64,000 bases of DNA from an uncultured delta proteobacterium (GTDB lineage: Bacteria; Desulfobacterota; Desulfobacteria; Desulfobacterales; JAFDCJ01). The notes beneath the pieces were generated by a model. The model saw only the letters and a list, made by a program, of their open reading frames with translations, was not told the origin of the DNA and ran no database searches. Positions 19,674 to 31,818 of this stretch are shown in pieces (positions within the stretch are counted from its first letter, which is position 1; each line of letters begins with the position of its first letter). The translations under genes and the position numbers were made by a program. The DNA lies in assembly GCA_963769935.1 (NCBI GenBank), contig CAVYNY010000020.1:1-64000 (forward strand), read 5' to 3'.

Positions 19674-22173
19674 TCAATTTGACCCGCCCCCGGCGTTGCG
19701 CATCCTCAGGTTTATCGCCAACCGTTCCAGCGACAATTTAATTACGTCTTGGGCTTTATTCTTTTTATTAAGGTAATCGGCGAAAAAGGCGTTTACTTCA
19801 TCCGCTCGCTGAATTCCGGCTGACGGAACGATTGCGGCAATGACGCGTTCATAGTGCAGCGGATGAAATTGTTCAATTTGATCTAATTTGGCGACATACC
19901 AATCCCACATCAAATCGACGGCATGGGGGTTGGCGCATAAGGCCATTACCGGTAAAAATTTGTTGCGGGCCGGCACCGCGTCCAGGATGTATTGCTGGGT
20001 TTTAATTATCAACCCCTTATCCTTGAAGCAGCCCAGAGCGGTTAGAATGTTCAGGCGTTCATGTTCGATTTGAGACTCTCGCAACCGCCGGCCAAACCAT
20101 TCGAATACCTGCTCATCGCCTGCCAGCGCCCCCACCTGCAGCACGCTTTTCATGATGTCCGGATGGACGGACGCACCGCTCATCAGGGATTTAAATCGGT
20201 CAAAGGCAAAGTCCAGGACCGGCTCGGAACCATAAAGCGCCGCATTCCAGATGATTTGGTCCCGCAGCCTGGCGGTCGGATGGCCTTCGGCCGGGGCCGG
20301 TTCATATCCGATTTTTGCCAACAGGTCTTCGAACCAGGGTGTTGCCCAGGCGGATAATTTCCGCCGCCAATCATCCTTCATTACCAGATACGCTGAAAAA
20401 AGATTTTCCGCCGTGCTGGTCAGCGGCAGATAAGCGTCTTCCGTGTCGTACCAGGCCAGGAAATCAAGATATTCATCCAGCAGCGCATCACCGCCTTTAA
20501 CCAGCGCATACAAATCGTTTTGAAGGCCCCAGCGGTCTTCCGGCGGCAGTGATTTCTCCCGCACCCGCCGGCCGAGTTCAGCCATATTTTTATCGTCGGT
20601 ATATTTGACCCGGTAAAACCCCGTTTGCCGCGCGTTGACTTTGTAAGCCACCGTATCGGCATCCATGTCAATGGCCTGTTCGATGTCGTCCAGGAGCACA
20701 GTCAGCGGGTGCGTGGCCCCTGTTTTAGAAATGAGACTGATGGTAATCGGCACCATCCACTTCTGGTTGAAATCGTTCGGCAGATAGGTAAATCGCTTTT
20801 GTCTCAGCAGCAACCGGCGGCCCGTGCGGCTGACCGTGATCAGCGGATAACCCGGCTGTTCGATCCAGCTTTGCATCATGGCACTTATCGGCTCTTGGGA
20901 TACGGTTTCAAAGGACTCCCAGAGATGGTGGCTGGCGGCGCAACCATATTCATATGTCTTCAGATAATGCCGCAATCCGTTTTTGAAATTATCATCTCCT
21001 ATAAAGCCCTGAATTTGTCTTAATATGCTGCCGCCTTTGTTGTAGATGATCGGCGCGGTGCTGACATTGATGACAACATGCTCGCCGCCCGGAATCTCAA
21101 TAGCAGATGTTTCCTGCAGGGCATCCCGTACCAGGGCGGATCCGGTCTGGCTGTTAAGAAACTGCTGCCACGTGTTCCATTGCGGATAGTAGTGATCGAC
21201 CACGCCGTACCCAAAATAGGTGGCAAAACTCTCATTGAGCCAAATGATATCTCCAATCCGACGGGGTGACCAGGTTGCCGAACCACTGGTGGGCAATTTC
21301 ATGCGCGATGACCTCGCATATTCGCTCCTCGCCGGATTTGGAGATAATCTTCGGATAATGCAGCAGCAGGTTCTCGCGGAAGGTGATTGCGCCCCAGTTT
21401 TCCATGGCTCCGAAGGCAAAATCCGGAATGGCGATCAGATCCAGTTTGGGAAGCGGATAGGGAACGGCGTAATAGGCTTCGCTGAACGCCAGAGATTTGC
21501 GGCCAAATTCAGCTCCGTACCGGGCAAATTGTTTTTTACCCGGCAAGGTCGCCACTCTTACCCGGGGGTCTTTGTCATCAGGGGTGACTTCAAATTCACC
21601 GACGCCAAAGAACACGAGATAGGTCGACATTTTGGGGGTTCGTTCGAAGGTGATGCGTTTTTTTTCATCAGCGAGCGCTTCTTCTTTTTTCAGCGTGCCG
21701 TTGGAGATGGCCGTCAGGTTTTTATCAATGTCCAAAATAATGTCGAATGTTGCTTTGCAGGCCGGACGGTCCAGGCAGGGAAAAGCCCGTCGGGCATCAC
21801 TTTCCTGGAATTGGGTTACAGCGATATATCCGGTTTTTTCCTGATAAGTATATTTGCTGCGGTAAAATCCGGCCATCTTGTCGTTGATCAACCCCTGGTA
21901 GTCGATTTCCAGCTCGATGGTTCCGGACATGGGTTCGGGCAAAAAGACAAGGACTTCTTCCCTCCCGGGGTCCACTCTGAAAGAACAGATCGCCGACTCG
22001 TCAGCCTTGCGCACCCGACAGCTCCAAACAGCAATTTCCAGAACGTTGAGCGCCACCTCGCTGACCGGGTCGGGCGCCTCGAAGATAACTTCACACTTTC
22101 CTGCGAAGTCGAATTTGACCAGGTCGGGTTTCAAATGGATTCGGTAATTTATAGGATTTATTGGCTGCATCAT
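19674..22173 (-). CDS. M1-family aminopeptidase (PepN/tricorn-interacting-factor-like), frameshifted near 21250
   Basis: TQF...ARRAFPC, GAMENWG, HEIAHQWFGNLVT, WLNESFAT, YNKGGSIL; ERAP1-like C-terminal region. Confidence 0.92.
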
Positions 22174-23365: not shown

Positions 23366-26248
23366 CTATCCGCCTGCCGGCGTCGGATTGTCGGCCGGTC
23401 CATTTGACAGCTGCTCAATCAGACGCAGCTTGATATTGTTGGCGGCTTTTTGAGCAGATTCAGCCAGGGGCGATTTGCCCTCGGCCAGCTTCTCCAGAAA
23501 TGATTCAGATTTGGCCGTACCTATATTTCCAAGGGTGTTGACTGCCGACGACAGCACCATGGACTGATCCGATACGGCGGCTTTTTTGAAGCGTTCAAAC
23601 AGACCTTTTTTCTGATTTGATAAGTTGCGGGCAAAGTCTAAAATACTATCTTCCGCTTCGGCATGATTGGGGATATGCGGGATCGTTCCGAGCGCTCTGA
23701 TCAACTGGGCGATTTTGCGATTATGTTTGTCGGCTTCAGCTTTATCATCGGGAGCTTCAGCGGTTATTTGAGCAAGCAGCTTCCTGATTGAATCTTCCGA
23801 AATCAGCGCAAGTTCGCCGAGGCCGTTCATCGCGCGCCAGCGCACTTTATCGTCGACATCCTCCAGGGCGGCGATGACCTGCTTTTCGGTGCCTTCGGCT
23901 TTTTTCCGGATAAGCGCGTTTAAAGCCTCATAACGGACCCGGGGATCTCCATAGTTCAGAAACTTGTGGGCGCGCGCAATATCCTGCTTGTTATCTCCGA
24001 CATATCCCAGCAGCATCAAGGCATTGCGGATTAAATACCATTTTTGTCCGGGAGTGTCCAGCACCCTGAAAATCCAGTCCCGCGCCAGGCCGCCTTTTTT
24101 TATCAAGGCTTCCATGGCTGCTTTTCTCGCAAAACGGTCCTGGCTGTCGGAGAGCGCCTTGCTCAAAATCTCTACGCCCATCATGTCCAGGCGGTTGCAG
24201 ATGTCATTTATCAGCGTGCGTTGCGATGCGTCCACCTTGTCATAGGCTGCCACGATTGCTTCGGTGTGGTCCTTGAAAACAAAAACGAGCGGATTCGCAA
24301 GCCGTCCGGAGGCCGGCTTGAAAAGGTCGGTGGTTGCAACGATTTTATGCATGGCCCGGGTCAGATAAACCACATTCCGCCAGGATGCGGTTTCGGTCAG
24401 AGCCGGCAAAATACGGCGAAAAAGCTTGAGCATGACGGCGGCGTCTTCTTTGGATTTGATGTGCAGAAAGCGGTTGACGTAGCTTTTAATGTGGGCCTGC
24501 ACATCCTTAGTCATTTTATCCGTATTTACAAAATATTGCACGTCAGCCGGAAGCTCCTCAAAAGTCAGGACCCGATTCAAATAAAGTTTTTCCAGAAACT
24601 TTTGGGCCCCTTTCACATCTTCCAAAACCAGCCGTTGCGACACCCATTTTAAGATGCGTTTCACCCCGCTGAAGCGCCGCTGCAGGACGGCGTTATCCTG
24701 AAGTTCTGTCTTCACGGTCCGCAGATGATTGAGTTCTTCAAAAATAAACCGGGAGGTAGGCAGCAGGCTCTCAAGGGGCAAAGCTTCGATGATGACCTTT
24801 TCGATGTCTTCGGCTTGGAGGCTTTTGACGTGTTGGGCGATGATATAGCAGTTGACAATAAAGTCTTTGAGAAATTCAGGATGCTTCAACGGCCGTAAAA
24901 TATCCTGGATGATCTGAAGCTTCATGGTCCGCATGGCCTCACCGGATTTGCTCTTGAACATCGGCAAAACCGTCAGATCCTTGGCCAGGCGCTGGATCGC
25001 CATCTCGACGCGCCAGGGAAGATTTAACTCCAGGGCAATTAAATCGTCTTTGAACACGGTCGATATCTGGGTGATGCCGTGCTCAACCAGGGCCTTGGAC
25101 AAGAGCTCGCCGATTTTTTGCCCTGTGCCGGTGTCAGCCTTGGGGTCGCTCATGATGGTCATAAATCTTTCAAAATGATCGAGGGGGATATCCTTTTTGA
25201 CGGCAAAGCTGACAAGGCTTTTGCGGTTGAAATATTCCTGCAGTTTAGGCACGAAAAGTTCCGCCATTCCCGAGCCGACCAGAGTTCTCACATTAACGGG
25301 TTCATCCAGAATGCCGTTGATCAGGATTTCGGAGCCTTCCCGCATCACGCGGTTCGTTATCATTATTTCGCCGGAATCGGCCAGACATCGCTGGAACGCC
25401 TCATACAGACCCTTTTTCGCCTGCCGGGACCCGGGATGATCCGGGGCATAGTAACCGCTGCGCAGCATAGCCCTGGTAAGATCCATGAGAAATTCAGCGG
25501 CAGGCTTTGCCCGGCGGCTCTCTTCCTCGGTGAGGTGATTTTTGGCGGTGGCCGGTGCGGCGGCCAGGTGAGCGGCGGTCTCCTTTTCTCTGGTTGCCTC
25601 CTCTTGTGCGATGGCACCGCGGATCCACATTATGCTCAGCGCACGGTTTTTTTCGCTACCGGATTCCGGGGTGTCACCCGGGGCAATCTCGACCGGGGCA
25701 GGCCCGGCCGCTTGCCCTTCCGCCGGCAGCCGGGCGGCCTGAGTTTGAATCGCAGAAGAAGCCGGCGTGCCATCGGCCGGCGGCATTGAATCGCCGGTCG
25801 GGTGTACCTGGGCCGTGGCGCCAACCGAGCCGGGTGACGGAATCTCAGGCGATTTCAGATTGCTCGCCGGTTTTTCCCGGCCGGCGTTGGATTTTAGGCG
25901 GGCGTAAGAATCCGGCGCTTTCAAGCCCAATAAGTCCCTGTAATCCGCATTGGTGCTCAGGGCATCATTGAGATCTTTGAGGGCGGCGGCCGGGGTTGCG
26001 AGGCCGACGAGCATTCCGCTCGACTTTTGCAGGGGAGCCGCAGTTTGGGCATCGAGGGCCTTTATGACAACGCCCTCCACGGTAACTTCCTGTTCAACTA
26101 CGGGGATAAAAATTTGCAAAGCTACGCTTGTATTTTCAGGCAGAGGGGCTCTGGCGGGAAGAAAAATCCTGCCCTTGCAAAGCTGAGCGTAGTCGCTCAA
26201 AAATCGTTCCAGAGAAACGTAGTTGAGCTTTATTTCTTTTGTCGCCAA
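23366..26248 (-). CDS. HEAT-repeat protein with possible N-terminal PilZ-like domain and Pro/Ala linker
   Basis: 960-aa ORF; C-terminal HEAT motifs (WYLIRNA, DPRVRYEAL, DDKVRWRA); N-terminal GRIFLP...V-VEGVV...GM-V. Confidence 0.7.
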   Translation of the reverse strand: MATKEIKLNYVSLERFLSDYAQLCKGRIFLPARAPLPENTSVALQIFIPVVEQEVTVEGVVIKALDAQTAAPLQKSSGMLVGLATPAAALKDLNDALSTNADYRDLLGLKAPDSYARLKSNAGREKPASNLKSPEIPSPGSVGATAQVHPTGDSMPPADGTPASSAIQTQAARLPAEGQAAGPAPVEIAPGDTPESGSEKNRALSIMWIRGAIAQEEATREKETAAHLAAAPATAKNHLTEEESRRAKPAAEFLMDLTRAMLRSGYYAPDHPGSRQAKKGLYEAFQRCLADSGEIMITNRVMREGSEILINGILDEPVNVRTLVGSGMAELFVPKLQEYFNRKSLVSFAVKKDIPLDHFERFMTIMSDPKADTGTGQKIGELLSKALVEHGITQISTVFKDDLIALELNLPWRVEMAIQRLAKDLTVLPMFKSKSGEAMRTMKLQIIQDILRPLKHPEFLKDFIVNCYIIAQHVKSLQAEDIEKVIIEALPLESLLPTSRFIFEELNHLRTVKTELQDNAVLQRRFSGVKRILKWVSQRLVLEDVKGAQKFLEKLYLNRVLTFEELPADVQYFVNTDKMTKDVQAHIKSYVNRFLHIKSKEDAAVMLKLFRRILPALTETASWRNVVYLTRAMHKIVATTDLFKPASGRLANPLVFVFKDHTEAIVAAYDKVDASQRTLINDICNRLDMMGVEILSKALSDSQDRFARKAAMEALIKKGGLARDWIFRVLDTPGQKWYLIRNALMLLGYVGDNKQDIARAHKFLNYGDPRVRYEALNALIRKKAEGTEKQVIAALEDVDDKVRWRAMNGLGELALISEDSIRKLLAQITAEAPDDKAEADKHNRKIAQLIRALGTIPHIPNHAEAEDSILDFARNLSNQKKGLFERFKKAAVSDQSMVLSSAVNTLGNIGTAKSESFLEKLAEGKSPLAESAQKAANNIKLRLIEQLSNGPADNPTPAGG

Positions 26249-26649
26249 AATGACCTCTTCAACACCATCGTTATGTAAGTCATCGCGAATGATGGGATGA
26301 GCATTTCGTCAGGAGTTGCGTCCCGCCCCCCCATCAAAAAGTGCCAAAGCATTTTGTCGGACTGATAAGTCGACGCGCACAAAGAGAACTCAGCTTCTAA
26401 AAGGATGGCCAACAAAAAACCGTATATTTTCTGATAATTATAGTCGACATCGGCCGGAATGTCAATTTAACGGTACGCAGGATACCCTGCCAAGCGAAGG
26501 GATGGCTAAATTGGTGGTTGGTAATATTTCTTTCGAGCCACCCATGTTCAGATTAAATAGGTTGACTTAAAAGGAAATTTTGATAGGAATGTATCAGCTA
26601 AATGCCCTTACCAAATATATGAGGTTTGGCATGCTTAAAAAATCGACGA

Positions 26650-26781: not shown

Positions 26782-27450
26782 ATGGCAAAGAAAAAAATAT
26801 TTTTAGCATCTTCATCCGAATTGAAAGATGACAGAGTCGCGTTCGAACTTTACATTAATCGAAAAAACAAGGAGTGGCATGATAAAGGTATTTTTCTTGA
26901 ACTGATATCTTGGGAAGATTTTTTAGATGCCATGTCGCAGGAACGGTTGCAGGATGAATACAACAAAGCCATCCGTGAATGCGATATATTCGTGATGCTT
27001 TTTTTTACCAAAGTCGGAAAATATACGAATGAAGAGTTTGAAACTGCATTCGGACAGTTCAAAAAAACCAATAAACCGTTTATTTATACGTATTTTAAGG
27101 ATGCTGCCATAACTACCGGCAGTGCGAATCGGAAAGACTTGATGAGTTTGTATGCGTTTCAAGACAAATTAGACCGCTTAGGCCATTTTTATACTGTTTA
27201 TAAAAACATTGACGATCTGAAATACCAATTTGAACGCCAATTGGATAAATTGGCCGATGGCGGCTTTATTCAATTTGAACCGGAAAAAGATCAGGATGGG
27301 CAGAAACCGACCGCCACTACCAAAATCGGCCGTACCGTCCGCGATTCCGAGGTGGAATCTCTCTCAGAGGGCGGCAATTCTCGAACTGAGGTGGGCCAAG
27401 ACGTAATAGGGTCAAAAATAACGACAAAATCTACGATGAAGGCGAAATGA
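26782..27450 (+). CDS. TIR-like (DUF4062-type) effector domain with two C-terminal pseudo-repeats
   Basis: KIFLASSSELKDDR...W-ED...LQDEYNKAIRECDIFVMLFFTKVGKYTNEEF; GGGAGGTG RBS; tail TKIGRTVRDSEVES / TEVGQDVIGSKITT. Confidence 0.75.
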   Translation: MAKKKIFLASSSELKDDRVAFELYINRKNKEWHDKGIFLELISWEDFLDAMSQERLQDEYNKAIRECDIFVMLFFTKVGKYTNEEFETAFGQFKKTNKPFIYTYFKDAAITTGSANRKDLMSLYAFQDKLDRLGHFYTVYKNIDDLKYQFERQLDKLADGGFIQFEPEKDQDGQKPTATTKIGRTVRDSEVESLSEGGNSRTEVGQDVIGSKITTKSTMKAK

Positions 27451-28304
27451 GTCTCATGTCGACCAATGAACCCATTCCGGTAAGTGAAATCGTCAATTTT
27501 GATGAAATGCTAAATAAATTCAAGAAGATGATATCCGGCCCCAATTCCAAAAAAATTATGATCATCGTTGCGCGGGACGGGCGTGGCAAGACGAGTTTAT
27601 TGCGTAAAATGCAACATCACTGTCAGTCCCTGGAAGTGCCCAGCTGCCTGATAGATCTCTCCCAAACTTATAATTTCCCCCATCTGGAATTGGCCAGAGA
27701 AATTTGCGAACGACTACAGTTGCCAATGACGGCTTTAACGGAAGCCTTCAGCCCAATCAGTGCTCCTGCTGGAAAATCAGGAGTTAAAATGGAAGCATCC
27801 ACTAAAATAGGCGGCAATGTCATTGATTCAACGATTGAAACCAAAAACATTCTCCAAATCGTCCTGAACAACGAGGCCCTTCATAGCGAAGATATTAAAA
27901 GGCGGCTCAGCCGCAGCCTCGCCTCTGATATCACATCGGGTAAAAAAATGATGGTATGTCTTTTTGACACTTTTGATACCGGAACCAGAGTAGTTACGGA
28001 TTGGTTAATAGAGGCCCTTTTGCGTCCTATTCGAGAGCGGGGGATAGATAACCTGATTGTAATTATTGCCGGAAGTGCGTGGCCCCAAAAAATAAGTGAT
28101 GTGGATTGGGAAGCCCATGCAGAATTCATAGAAGGAATGCCATTGATGTCAAAGAATCATCTATTGGAGTTTGCAGAGAGAATCGGATGTGAGTTGTCAC
28201 AAGAAGAACTTGAAACATGCTGGTTGGGCTGCGGAAAAGGCAGGCCGCTGTTAATGAATATGTTCATCAAAACTTTATGCAGTGAGAAAAGATCAAGTGG
28301 TTGA
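27447..28304 (+). CDS. STAND/AAA-like P-loop ATPase
   Basis: Walker A ARDGRGKT, Walker B MVCLFDTFD, sensor LIVIIAGS, C-terminal GxP (GRPL); ATGA overlap with the upstream stop. Confidence 0.75.
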   Translation: MSLMSTNEPIPVSEIVNFDEMLNKFKKMISGPNSKKIMIIVARDGRGKTSLLRKMQHHCQSLEVPSCLIDLSQTYNFPHLELAREICERLQLPMTALTEAFSPISAPAGKSGVKMEASTKIGGNVIDSTIETKNILQIVLNNEALHSEDIKRRLSRSLASDITSGKKMMVCLFDTFDTGTRVVTDWLIEALLRPIRERGIDNLIVIIAGSAWPQKISDVDWEAHAEFIEGMPLMSKNHLLEFAERIGCELSQEELETCWLGCGKGRPLLMNMFIKTLCSEKRSSG

Positions 28305-29733: not shown

Positions 29734-30960
29734 TTATCTTAATATTATCAGACCCCGATTATGAAGTTGCGCCACTAAATCGATGCCATCCTGCCCGAAG
29801 AGTTTATATATTTCATGCATTTTCGTATCCCCGGTGCACATATCCAATATAGCCTTTGCTTCCCCGCTGACAGGGACGACCTGGCTGTTTTGAATCAGAA
29901 TATAGCCGAAGGGTTCGGGTCTCATTTGAAAGCATTTAACAGGGCGGGCCTCTTTCGGAAGATTAATCTTTTTTCTCTTATCGTGGAGATCGATGGGGAG
30001 CGGATCACGGATGAGAGGGTCTTGCGGCAGTTCGTTTATCATCGCCGCCGCGCGGCAACCTCCATGGCAGCTTGTGTAGACTGAACATCGATCGCAGAAA
30101 GACGGTATAAAACGTCTCCACTTCTGCATTCCCTCGCTGTGCCAGATGACTTGCAGCGAACTGTCCAGCAAGTTTCCGCAATTTGCAGCAGACATGACGC
30201 AGGGACGGACGTTGCCCCAGGGGTCGATCGTCAGGGTTATCGTCCCGGCCAGGCATCCATTGAATAACGTTGAATTATGGAAGCACTTTGGTATGCAGAC
30301 GCTGCTGAAAATGGGAATATCTGAGTCCCTCATCTGATTTGTGATGGCTTGAATAGCGGATATCAGCTGAGGATTGGAGGGGTTTAGCTGATTTTCTTTC
30401 AAGCAGACAAATCTGCTGAAAGTAATGCCTTGCGAACCTAATTTTCGATTGATTCGCACCATCTCCTCTATGCGATCAAAGTTTAACGATGTGATGATAC
30501 AATTGATAAATACGCGAAGATGATGATCCGCCGCGAAACGAATATTTTTGCAAGTCTCTATGAATGAACCCGGTATTCCTGTAAAGCCATCATGGCTTTG
30601 AGCATCCGGGCCATGTAAAGATACCAGGATTTCGGAAAATCCTGAGAAAGCACCGAGCGTACCGACAATTTGCTTCTTGCTAGGCCATCTTGCGTTGGTG
30701 AATAGTGAAAAAGAAAATTCGAGTTTGTTTATCAGGGTAAGTAATTCGGTGAAATTCGGACTGAGTGTCGGCTCCCCTCCTGTTAGATTCAGATGAACAA
30801 CAGCGGGCTTGAGCTTGGATAATATGGTCTGCCAGACATCAATATTGATAATGGTTTGATTATCGTCAACTGCGAATACAGTGCCGCATCCGCTGCAATT
30901 ATTGTTGCAACTAGAGGTGACTTCCAGGTACGCGAAAACAGGTGAGGATGGAATTATCAA
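29734..30960 (-). CDS. Radical SAM/SPASM peptide maturase with C-terminal PqqD/RRE-like domain
   Basis: CNNNCSGC, TGGEP, VSLHG, SPASM cysteines GCLAG...IDPWGNVRPC...CDRCSVYTSCHGGCRA; ~70-aa tail MRPEPFGYILI...AKAILDMCTG...LVAQLHNRGLI; TTG start. Confidence 0.9.
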   Translation of the reverse strand: MIIPSSPVFAYLEVTSSCNNNCSGCGTVFAVDDNQTIINIDVWQTILSKLKPAVVHLNLTGGEPTLSPNFTELLTLINKLEFSFSLFTNARWPSKKQIVGTLGAFSGFSEILVSLHGPDAQSHDGFTGIPGSFIETCKNIRFAADHHLRVFINCIITSLNFDRIEEMVRINRKLGSQGITFSRFVCLKENQLNPSNPQLISAIQAITNQMRDSDIPIFSSVCIPKCFHNSTLFNGCLAGTITLTIDPWGNVRPCVMSAANCGNLLDSSLQVIWHSEGMQKWRRFIPSFCDRCSVYTSCHGGCRAAAMINELPQDPLIRDPLPIDLHDKRKKINLPKEARPVKCFQMRPEPFGYILIQNSQVVPVSGEAKAILDMCTGDTKMHEIYKLFGQDGIDLVAQLHNRGLIILR

Positions 30961-31005
30961 CTTTTTACTAGCATCTAACTAAAGGGCTGGCTTGGATGAC
31001 ACTAA

Positions 31006-31161
31006 GGGCTCACTCAAAAATAACTTCACATTTTATACGCCGATGCATCTCATGCGGCTGCGTTGCGAAAGCTCGGAATATCCAGATATTCCTGCGTTTT
31101 CGCGCCTTGCCGCAAGAGCGCCTCAACGCTTAAAACTGTGAATTAATTTTTTCGTGAACCC
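31006..31161 (-). mobile_element. 156-bp MITE-like element, copy 1
   Basis: Imperfect terminal inverted repeats GGGCTCACTCAAAAATAACTTCACA / TGTGAATTAATTTTTTCGTGAACCC, flanked by TAA on both sides; internal palindrome GGAATATC-CA-GATATTCC; closely similar inverted copy at 36461-36616. Confidence 0.85.
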
Positions 31162-31397
31162 TAAGGAATTGGCGCCGGGCACTGAGCATTTGGGTTTGGG
31201 CACTGGACACTCGGTGTCGGGCACTGAGCCAATCGCCGGGCTTCGGGGTTGGGGCATTGAGAAAAATACACTTGACCGCTGAGATTTTTCTGTTGCCCTT
31301 CTCCAATAGTACCAGGAGTCAGCTCACAATGAAAATTAACTCCTTGCGATGGGTAAAAATCAAGCAAATAGTTTCGTCTTTTATCACGCGCTTTCAT
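31161..31397 (-). CDS. Putative RiPP precursor peptide with four QCPxP repeats
   Basis: GAGGGGG RBS; core QCPNP-EARRLA-QCPTP-SV-QCPNP-NA-QCPAP-IP*; synonymous Pro/Gln codons differ between repeats; directly upstream of and co-oriented with the rSAM gene. Confidence 0.8.
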   Translation of the reverse strand: MKARDKRRNYLLDFYPSQGVNFHCELTPGTIGEGQQKNLSGQVYFSQCPNPEARRLAQCPTPSVQCPNPNAQCPAPIP

Positions 31398-31595
31398 TTT
31401 TCCCCCTCTAGTTTTAAGTCACCTGGAAAAGACAGTTAAATATTTCTGCTAGCACAGTGTCAGAAAATGCCAAATAGGTCAATAATTTTTATGGACCCAT
31501 CCAACACCTCATTTTAAAATAAATAGGATTTTTAAAAACCTAGATTCCGAGAATATTTCGAATTGCTTGTATTGCCTTTTTCCCGACAACCTACT

Positions 31596-31818
31596 AAAAG
31601 GGATTGAAGCGCGGTTTGTTATCGACGGCAACATCTGGACAGGCGCAGGTGTTTCGGCGGGAATCGATCTGGCCCTGGCATTTATCAAGCACGAAGCCGG
31701 TGAGAAAGCTACCGGCAAGGTTCAGTCTTTGGTCGAATATTATCCGGCCGGCAAACGATACGGTAAATTTCATCAGGATTCCAAGGCACCGGGCTATTTA
31801 CAAAGGAGTACTTTATGA
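31596..31818 (+). pseudogene. 5'-truncated DJ-1/PfpI-family gene
   Basis: Only the C-terminal part, RFVIDGNIWTGAGVSAGIDLAL...VEYYP, is present; no N-terminal half upstream. Confidence 0.7.

Follow-up and report, generated by a model that had tools for sequence, protein, structure and literature searches.

Does the small Cys-containing peptide encoded beside a radical SAM/SPASM enzyme in the window (the whole 64,000-nt stretch analysed here) found a new, free-standing class of RiPPs, as a sequence-only reading had proposed, or is it one part of a larger device? The peptide and the enzyme do belong together, and their conserved association with genes for STAND-like ATPase/TPR proteins and for TIR, caspase or PNP effectors makes them part of something larger, not a RiPP that stands alone. 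We give a probability of about 0.55 to the reading in which the peptide-enzyme module travels with STAND-like ATPase/TPR genes, the core cysteines become cross-linked, and the product stays in the cell as a switch that fires the TIR effector. The features discussed below are collected in Table 1.

Table 1. Features of the window and members of two divergent homologue groups
Feature	Position or identifier	Strand	Basis or remark
TIR/DUF4062-like effector, 222 aa	26782..27450	+	fused to ATPase in relative L100
T[KE][IV]GxxVxxSx[IV] motif, two copies in TIR tail, third in ATPase	27319-27354, 27385-27420; 27801-27836	+	
STAND-like P-loop ATPase, 285 aa; Walker A ARDGRGKT, Walker B VCLFD	27447..28304	+	
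TPR protein, 481 aa	28282..29727	+	putative C-terminal half of a split STAND-type receptor
Radical SAM/SPASM enzyme, 408 aa	29734..30960	-	Radical_SAM and SPASM matches
C-terminal RRE-fold domain, residues 336-408	29737..29955	-	structure model and fold comparison
MITE, 159 nt, recent and polymorphic, inverted ends, active family	31002..31160	.	about 70 other near-full-length copies in the genome (counted by eye); empty-site contig
Precursor peptide gene, 78 aa	31161..31397	-	ORF call; relatives P0123, P0124
Core, residues 47-78, four QCPxP units	31164..31259	-	heptad repeat lineage-specific
Leader, residues 1-46, family motif LLDFY at 31353-31367	31260..31397	-	putative boundary
Ribosome-binding site GAGGGGG	31402..31408	-	ends 4 nt before ATG
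Cluster I Cys-loss clade	L096:7679-9077, L097:2-1394, L013:2913-4299, P0132		
CxxxCxxC-less homologues	P0156, P0158, P0164, P0167, P0179, P0188, P0190, P0191, P0212, P0217, P0246		

The precursor gene and its strong ribosome-binding site are present as first described, and so is the repeat: the four QCPxP units begin at residues 47, 58, 65 and 72 (spacings of 11, 7 and 7), which places the last three in the 7-residue register that had been pointed out. The reported codon variation is likewise found, with CAA and CAG for the repeat Gln and CCC, CCG and CCA for the Pro. In a six-frame search of the 8-Mb genome, QCPxP occurs 60 times, and the only one of 154,432 segments to hold at least two copies is this precursor. 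On a contig of a related strain, 12 codons of the gene differ (7 of them synonymously) and no listed difference touches QC or the motif prolines, both statements referring to the best-supported differences only. The relative P0124, 79% identical, bears five QCxxP units, so that the number of repeats varies by whole heptads. A search with the precursor sequence found 2 proteins among 5 candidates, and relatives were therefore gathered through the loci of enzyme homologues. No family in Pfam or NCBIfam matched the precursor or 12 other candidate peptides, and a precursor profile search of genome G000 brought up no second precursor.

With the MITE in place, 200 nt separate precursor and enzyme genes. 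One contig of run X1 omits exactly the 159 nt of the element, and the stop-to-start distance of 41 nt that results agrees with the ~40 bp predicted for the uninterrupted locus; the MITE is a passenger and no part of the system. RNA-library contigs overlap parts of the locus and carry no expression level or strand. A promoter scan returned an uninformative 14 sites against 9.8 ± 3.1 in shuffled sequences. Nearby, a perfect TTGACA-17-TATAAT promoter at 26437-26465 on the minus strand points to a HEAT-repeat gene (23366-26248).

The enzyme lies above the cut-offs of PF04055, PF13186 and TIGR04085 (45.3 bits for the last). It combines the CxxxCxxC motif (residues 18, 22 and 25) with Cys222, 226, 236, 254, 289, 292, 298 and 302 and with Asp314, and its cysteines are kept in 113-116 of 116 members. 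They follow the pattern CX9-15GX4C...CX2CX5CX3C, from which the final distal Cys of the seven-Cys motif is absent: the family has DPL(M/I) at the position of DPAC in PqqE, whose Cys, the last of the SPASM motif, we take to be a cluster ligand. In alignment, Cys236, 254 and 302 fall on the cluster I cysteines of PqqE and SuiB, with Cys226 a candidate fourth ligand. No named maturase reaches its cut-off in the best 25 of 54 NCBIfam matches. The C-terminal domain, which had been called RRE-like from its sequence, adopts an RRE fold in the model (pLDDT 93 for the enzyme and 91 for the domain alone). When folded alone, its top match is the PbtF RRE (8t19; Z 9.0, rmsd 2.1, 73 aligned residues), with further matches to lasso B1 (Z 8.0), TigE, TbiB1 and PqqD (Z 7.0). 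Inside the whole-enzyme model the domain again has the RRE fold (Z 9.5), and most of the top ten structural matches are RRE-bearing chains. At the sequence level, Pfam PqqD is touched by 1 of the 116 members (E 0.041).

Of 2,999 candidates from the protein search, 391 were homologues of the enzyme at E 1e-40 or better. Those few that are named come from Desulfobacterales and Anaerolineae, the Anaerolineae side of the family resting on proteins and short metagenome contigs. The C-terminal domain alone gave 127 clusters (50% identity) at E 1e-10 or better, which include many fragments and three unrelated repeat proteins. Eighteen homologue loci were obtained, four of them without usable upstream DNA; in the 14 informative ones, the peptide is free and has an LLxFY-like leader at nine loci, the Cys core is part of the enzyme at three, and neither is seen at two (L006 and L014). 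Similar peptides thus do stand beside homologous radical SAM enzymes. The QCPxP motif is not supported as the signature of a class, since homologous cores end differently (SQCGG, GQCAG, YGSCN, CECGCG, DCPACD or repeated DCGG), contain stretches such as CECGCG and QCDCDCAC, or finish in Ser-rich FALSSSG, FALSSGC and YGLSSS. The trait common to the family is a short Cys (or Ser) core, often with QC, and the PxP heptad is confined to the window's lineage. Of the original proposal, the pair itself survives, as do the C-terminal RRE and the probably intracellular product: precursor and enzyme are a genuine pair of an apparently undescribed family. No description of it was found in the literature searched, the supplementary neighbourhood tables of PMC7159879 and of the ParA preprint being places where it may be listed. 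Individual loci show variations on this arrangement: at L007 a GNAT gene lies between peptide and enzyme, two tandem precursor genes with DCGG repeats (L005:5310-5862) sit between an ATPase-TPR gene and the enzyme, and a 60-aa ORF with 10 Cys and a hydrophobic C-terminus (L008:1429-1608) follows a family enzyme that has no RRE.

The sequence-only reading missed the main partner of this pair, namely the TIR, STAND-like ATPase and TPR genes. These three overlapping ORFs run towards the enzyme gene and end 7 nt from its stop; the cassette is convergent and hence not one operon. Their domain matches are TIR_2/DUF4062, AAA_22/NB-ARC (weak, below cut-off) and TPR_12, and together they show the effector - P-loop NTPase - repeat sensor order of STAND systems. 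The Walker A of the ATPase begins with Ala, not Gly. The TIR protein retains glutamates at positions 84/85, presumably where the catalytic residue of TIR NADases lies. PADLOC returned partial matches only (PDC-S60 to the TIR protein, and generic TPR models). A frameshift artefact at the TIR/ATPase junction was considered and rejected, since contigs in runs X1, X2, X3 and X5 cross 27447-27450 without gaps. The motif shared by the TIR tail and the ATPase reaches a score attained by 0 of 200 shuffles, and its three copies are the only matches in the genome to a pattern that was defined after the fact. The tail repeat has no Pfam match, and the fused TIR-ATPase of L100 has no such tail. The 12-residue repeat may be a homotypic, amyloid-like coupling motif of the split effector (cf. 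bioRxiv 10.1101/2020.01.06.895854).

Immediately upstream of the peptide gene, relatives have AAA_16-TPR genes, often with another ATPase alongside, and BLAST finds the window ATPase and TPR proteins weakly similar to these full-length neighbours. Effectors are encoded further upstream: TIR at L181, caspase at L182, and TIR, caspase and DUF4062 at L183. Profiles of the ATPase and TPR genes were built from family neighbours, each tested clade being left out. Where 1.5 kb or more of upstream DNA was available, an ATPase and/or TPR gene was found within 4 kb in each of the 10 family loci and in none of the 38 non-family radical SAM loci (of 69 controls) with the same flank, figures to be read with the 10 loci as about six lineages and with profiles that favour family-type genes. 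Among nine family loci with a short flank, L100 and L014 scored and seven did not. The window ATPase is the top of 23 STAND-like segments in its genome (58.5 versus 35.3 bits, own clade left out), and 3% of that genome lies near a STAND-like gene. In L100, which comes from another family, the genes are again convergent; L099, for which upstream DNA is missing, has no ATPase or TPR gene in 9 kb downstream. In G347, the ATPase-TPR gene that precedes the peptide gene is broken at its end by a transposase (L093:9306-11492).

The association goes beyond neighbourhood. Of the 149 homologues with the radical SAM motif, 16 carry an N-terminal extension of at least 37 residues, and 14 of these 16 contain a CxCAC core that ends 25-26 residues before the first radical SAM Cys. 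Since a full RRE remains in 11 of these 14 core-fused enzymes, loss of the domain and fusion go together only in part. A search for longer proteins gave three matches, one unrelated and two (P0125 and P0126) in which core and enzyme are joined to an ATPase, in the order AAA_16, CVDCAC, radical SAM, SPASM for P0125 and PNP_UDP_1, AAA_16, CDCACDCAC, radical SAM, SPASM for P0126; both end before the RRE. At L098, a gene for an enzyme with fused QCDCG and no matched RRE overlaps the ATPase-TPR stop. Fused and free forms are intermingled in the tree (FastTree, 56 hand-picked proteins, with P0004 and P0006-P0008 assumed to be free). Since ATPase, Cys core and enzyme share one polypeptide in P0125 and P0126, these two fusions are direct genetic evidence of coupling, and the position of their core-enzyme unit, which takes the usual place of the TPR sensor, suggests that it serves as regulatory input. 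It is accordingly very improbable that QCPxP defines a stand-alone class with the TIR-ATPase-TPR genes as chance island neighbours. The two halves do lie on different strands of the window, and clustering of defence genes is known to occur without functional links, but neighbourhoods at 10/10 versus 0/38, a motif limited to one lineage and, above all, in-frame ATPase-core-enzyme fusions largely refute it.

How such a module would work can be outlined from these architectures. The leader would dock on the C-terminal RRE, whose fold is modelled, and the enzyme would then apply SAM-derived radical chemistry to each [S/A/V]QC unit, most likely forming a Cys thioether. The fusions and the lack of a transporter or protease suggest that the modified product, instead of leaving the cell, acts on the receptor. 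Following STAND logic, the ATPase-TPR proteins, with the modified peptide as their on/off ligand, would oligomerise upon infection and activate the TIR protein (in relatives, a caspase or PNP domain). The product is probably intracellular, as had been supposed from the sequence, because the core is often tethered to enzyme or ATPase inside large proteins and no exporter or HExxH peptidase accompanies it. The neighbouring genes indeed include no exporter or processing protease adjoining precursor and enzyme; an aminopeptidase-like gene (by motifs) lies ~7.5 kb off, apparently split into two overlapping ORFs of 313 and 581 aa (19674-22173), a possible frameshift.

The same genes could serve another end if the modified core were cleaved upon firing of the STAND system and set free as a diffusible alarm or antiviral molecule. 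A released alarm is proposed for FxsAB beside TIR/STAND genes in the available portions of bioRxiv 10.64898/2026.10.19.760177 and PMC7159879, caspase domains at some loci could do the cutting, and free peptides end right after the core. We nevertheless hold this to be unlikely: the HExxH peptidase family is unmatched in the genome, no exporter adjoins the genes, and the core is buried in a large protein in 14 homologues plus P0125 and P0126. A bolder version of the intracellular switch, to which we give similarly little credence, is a bacterial NLR-like receptor whose own Cys tag carries a covalent radical-SAM mark that controls it. Continual marking would keep it off, the guard would fire when a phage depletes SAM or halts host translation and peptide without the mark predominates, and the split TIR protein would be recruited via the 12-residue repeat; the mark would be set in cis in ATPase-core-enzyme fusions and in trans, via the leader-bearing peptide, in the window.

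The chemistry is best approached through a clade that departs from the rule. In L096, L097 and L013, Cys236, 254 and 302 were lost together and Cys222/226 kept, and the Ser-rich cores contain 0, 1 and 0 Cys, respectively. The members of this clade probably perform a different chemistry. Because the loss of Cys236/254/302 accompanies Cys-poor cores, auxiliary cluster I appears tied to the core cysteines and a Cys-directed reaction is favoured; the covariation is that of a single clade and counts as one evolutionary event. Thioether chemistry at the core cysteines has, in our judgement, roughly even odds. With eight conserved cysteines in its SPASM region, the enzyme could have both auxiliary clusters fully ligated, as SuiB and anSME do, which would argue against a classical thioether enzyme; CteB, a thioether-forming enzyme, binds the substrate Cys at an open site according to the available part of PMC6231123. 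An anSME-like conversion of Cys or Ser to formylglycine was also considered: one clade has Ser-rich cores, but that clade is also the one without the cluster I cysteines. A triceptide-like reading, prompted by Y-F-S and F-A-L motifs, was rejected, as the FxsB and HExxH tests fail and fused cores have no aromatics.

Eleven more distant homologues have no CxxxCxxC and keep all eight SPASM-region cysteines and the RRE. They are probable catalytically dead, peptide-binding iron-sulfur proteins, and for this reason some of the wider family may do without catalysis. The tandem proteins P0226 and P0267 join an intact radical SAM/SPASM enzyme and another RRE-like segment to a degenerate radical SAM/SPASM-RRE unit. 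Relatives that keep SPASM and RRE without the SAM-binding motif would also suit a peptide that, instead of being a substrate, donates Cys to complete an iron-sulfur site, enzyme and peptide together serving the STAND receptor as a SAM, redox or oxygen sensor, or acting as an effector on a non-peptide substrate. The fixed 25-26-residue spacing of the fused core, the missing canonical last SPASM Cys and weak viperin profile matches (E 1.6e-13) point the same way. These viperin matches, however, reflect the common radical SAM barrel, the cysteines of all three clusters are kept in 149 of 190 aligned proteins, and cores expanded to four or five units are more readily explained by iterative modification than by one ligand, which makes such a ligand role rather doubtful. 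The cross-linked intracellular switch is the reading that we retain.

The distribution of the cassette is patchy, like that of a defence island. It occurs in none of 22 same-genus genomes and in 8 of 401 genomes of the order sample, the window's genome included. It is absent beside the orthologous HEAT gene in all four congeners fetched (one with 3.9 kb of flank) and present beside the HEAT gene in a genome of another family. Its GC content is 42-46% versus 51%. No family member was found in 400 other genomes of the phylum sample, the class sample added no new genome, and the plasmids searched gave none; nor did viral contigs, where the best 80 of 175 loci are weak partial matches (E 4e-12 or weaker). 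At the cassette edge, a 5'-truncated DJ-1/PfpI-like fragment (31567-31818), 72% identical to a stretch in G017, may mark an insertion boundary.

On this reading, the peptide is not a secreted antibiotic but likely a chemically modified switch within a bacterial immune system that is itself predicted. In what is available of PMC7159879 and bioRxiv 10.64898/2026.10.19.760177, a part in bacterial immunity is predicted for peptide-modifying radical SAM enzymes encoded next to STAND/TIR genes, and the system described here is a real, apparently undescribed version of this peptide-plus-STAND theme, with predicted chemistry and immune role. The window version is compact (five genes in 4.6 kb) and its free four-repeat peptide is suited to mass spectrometry, so that the action of the enzyme on QC units and the use of a RiPP-type modification as an NLR-like receptor switch become testable questions.

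The closest parallel is the Fxs system of Actinomycetota, which, in the available part of PMC7159879, comprises the FxsA peptide, the radical SAM/SPASM enzyme FxsB, an HExxH protein, the TIR protein FxsC and the ATPase-TPR protein FxsT. In both, TIR and STAND-type ATPase-TPR genes, linked at the window locus, accompany a radical SAM/SPASM enzyme and a small, variable peptide, and an immune role is predicted for both. Unlike Fxs, the family described here is found in Desulfobacterales and Anaerolineae, its cores are Cys-centred instead of ending in FxSxx (the window precursor ends in QCPAPIP, with no NCBIfam match), its window enzyme has a C-terminal RRE, and core-enzyme and ATPase-core-enzyme fusions are frequent. 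FxsB (TIGR04269) has no match at the locus and at best 38.8 bits in the genome against a cut-off of 370, the HExxH protein (TIGR04267) is unmatched in genome G000 (96.7% complete), and a vWA/MoxR or ParA gene was not seen in any flank that was read. As the FxSxx_TPR model scores 32.6 against a cut-off of 300, the window ATPase-TPR proteins are analogous, not orthologous, to those of Fxs, a system of which the window cassette is not a member although it would work alike.

Maturases of ranthipeptides and sactipeptides such as CteB (SCIFF), PapB, AlbA and SkfB share with the window the SPASM fold, an RRE and a Cys core with repeats, as covered in the available parts of PMC8326336 and PMC6231123, and the enzyme is structurally close to SkfB and CteB (Z 25-26). 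It differs from them by its C-terminal RRE, ~20% identity, eight conserved cysteines with an extra CxPxC, and a setting without exporter or protease. Judged by its scores against the cut-offs for AlbA (73/850), StsB (56.5/625) and SkfB (54.2/300), and by the absence of a match to the SCIFF maturase TIGR03974 at the locus, it belongs to none of the sactipeptide or ranthipeptide maturase families tested. Split and substrate-fused self-modifying forms also exist among fused borosins, e.g. OphMA, which, in the part available of bioRxiv 10.1101/2021.12.24.474128, differ in their methyltransferase chemistry, released products and lack of a STAND link, so that the likeness is one of analogy only. Finally, proteusin epimerases are, from the accessible sections of PMC8326336, radical SAM enzymes with a C-terminal RRE and without auxiliary clusters, whereas the window enzyme has a full SPASM domain. 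With the present family, these neighbours would be joined by a SPASM enzyme whose RRE lies at the C-terminus and by natural forms that modify themselves.
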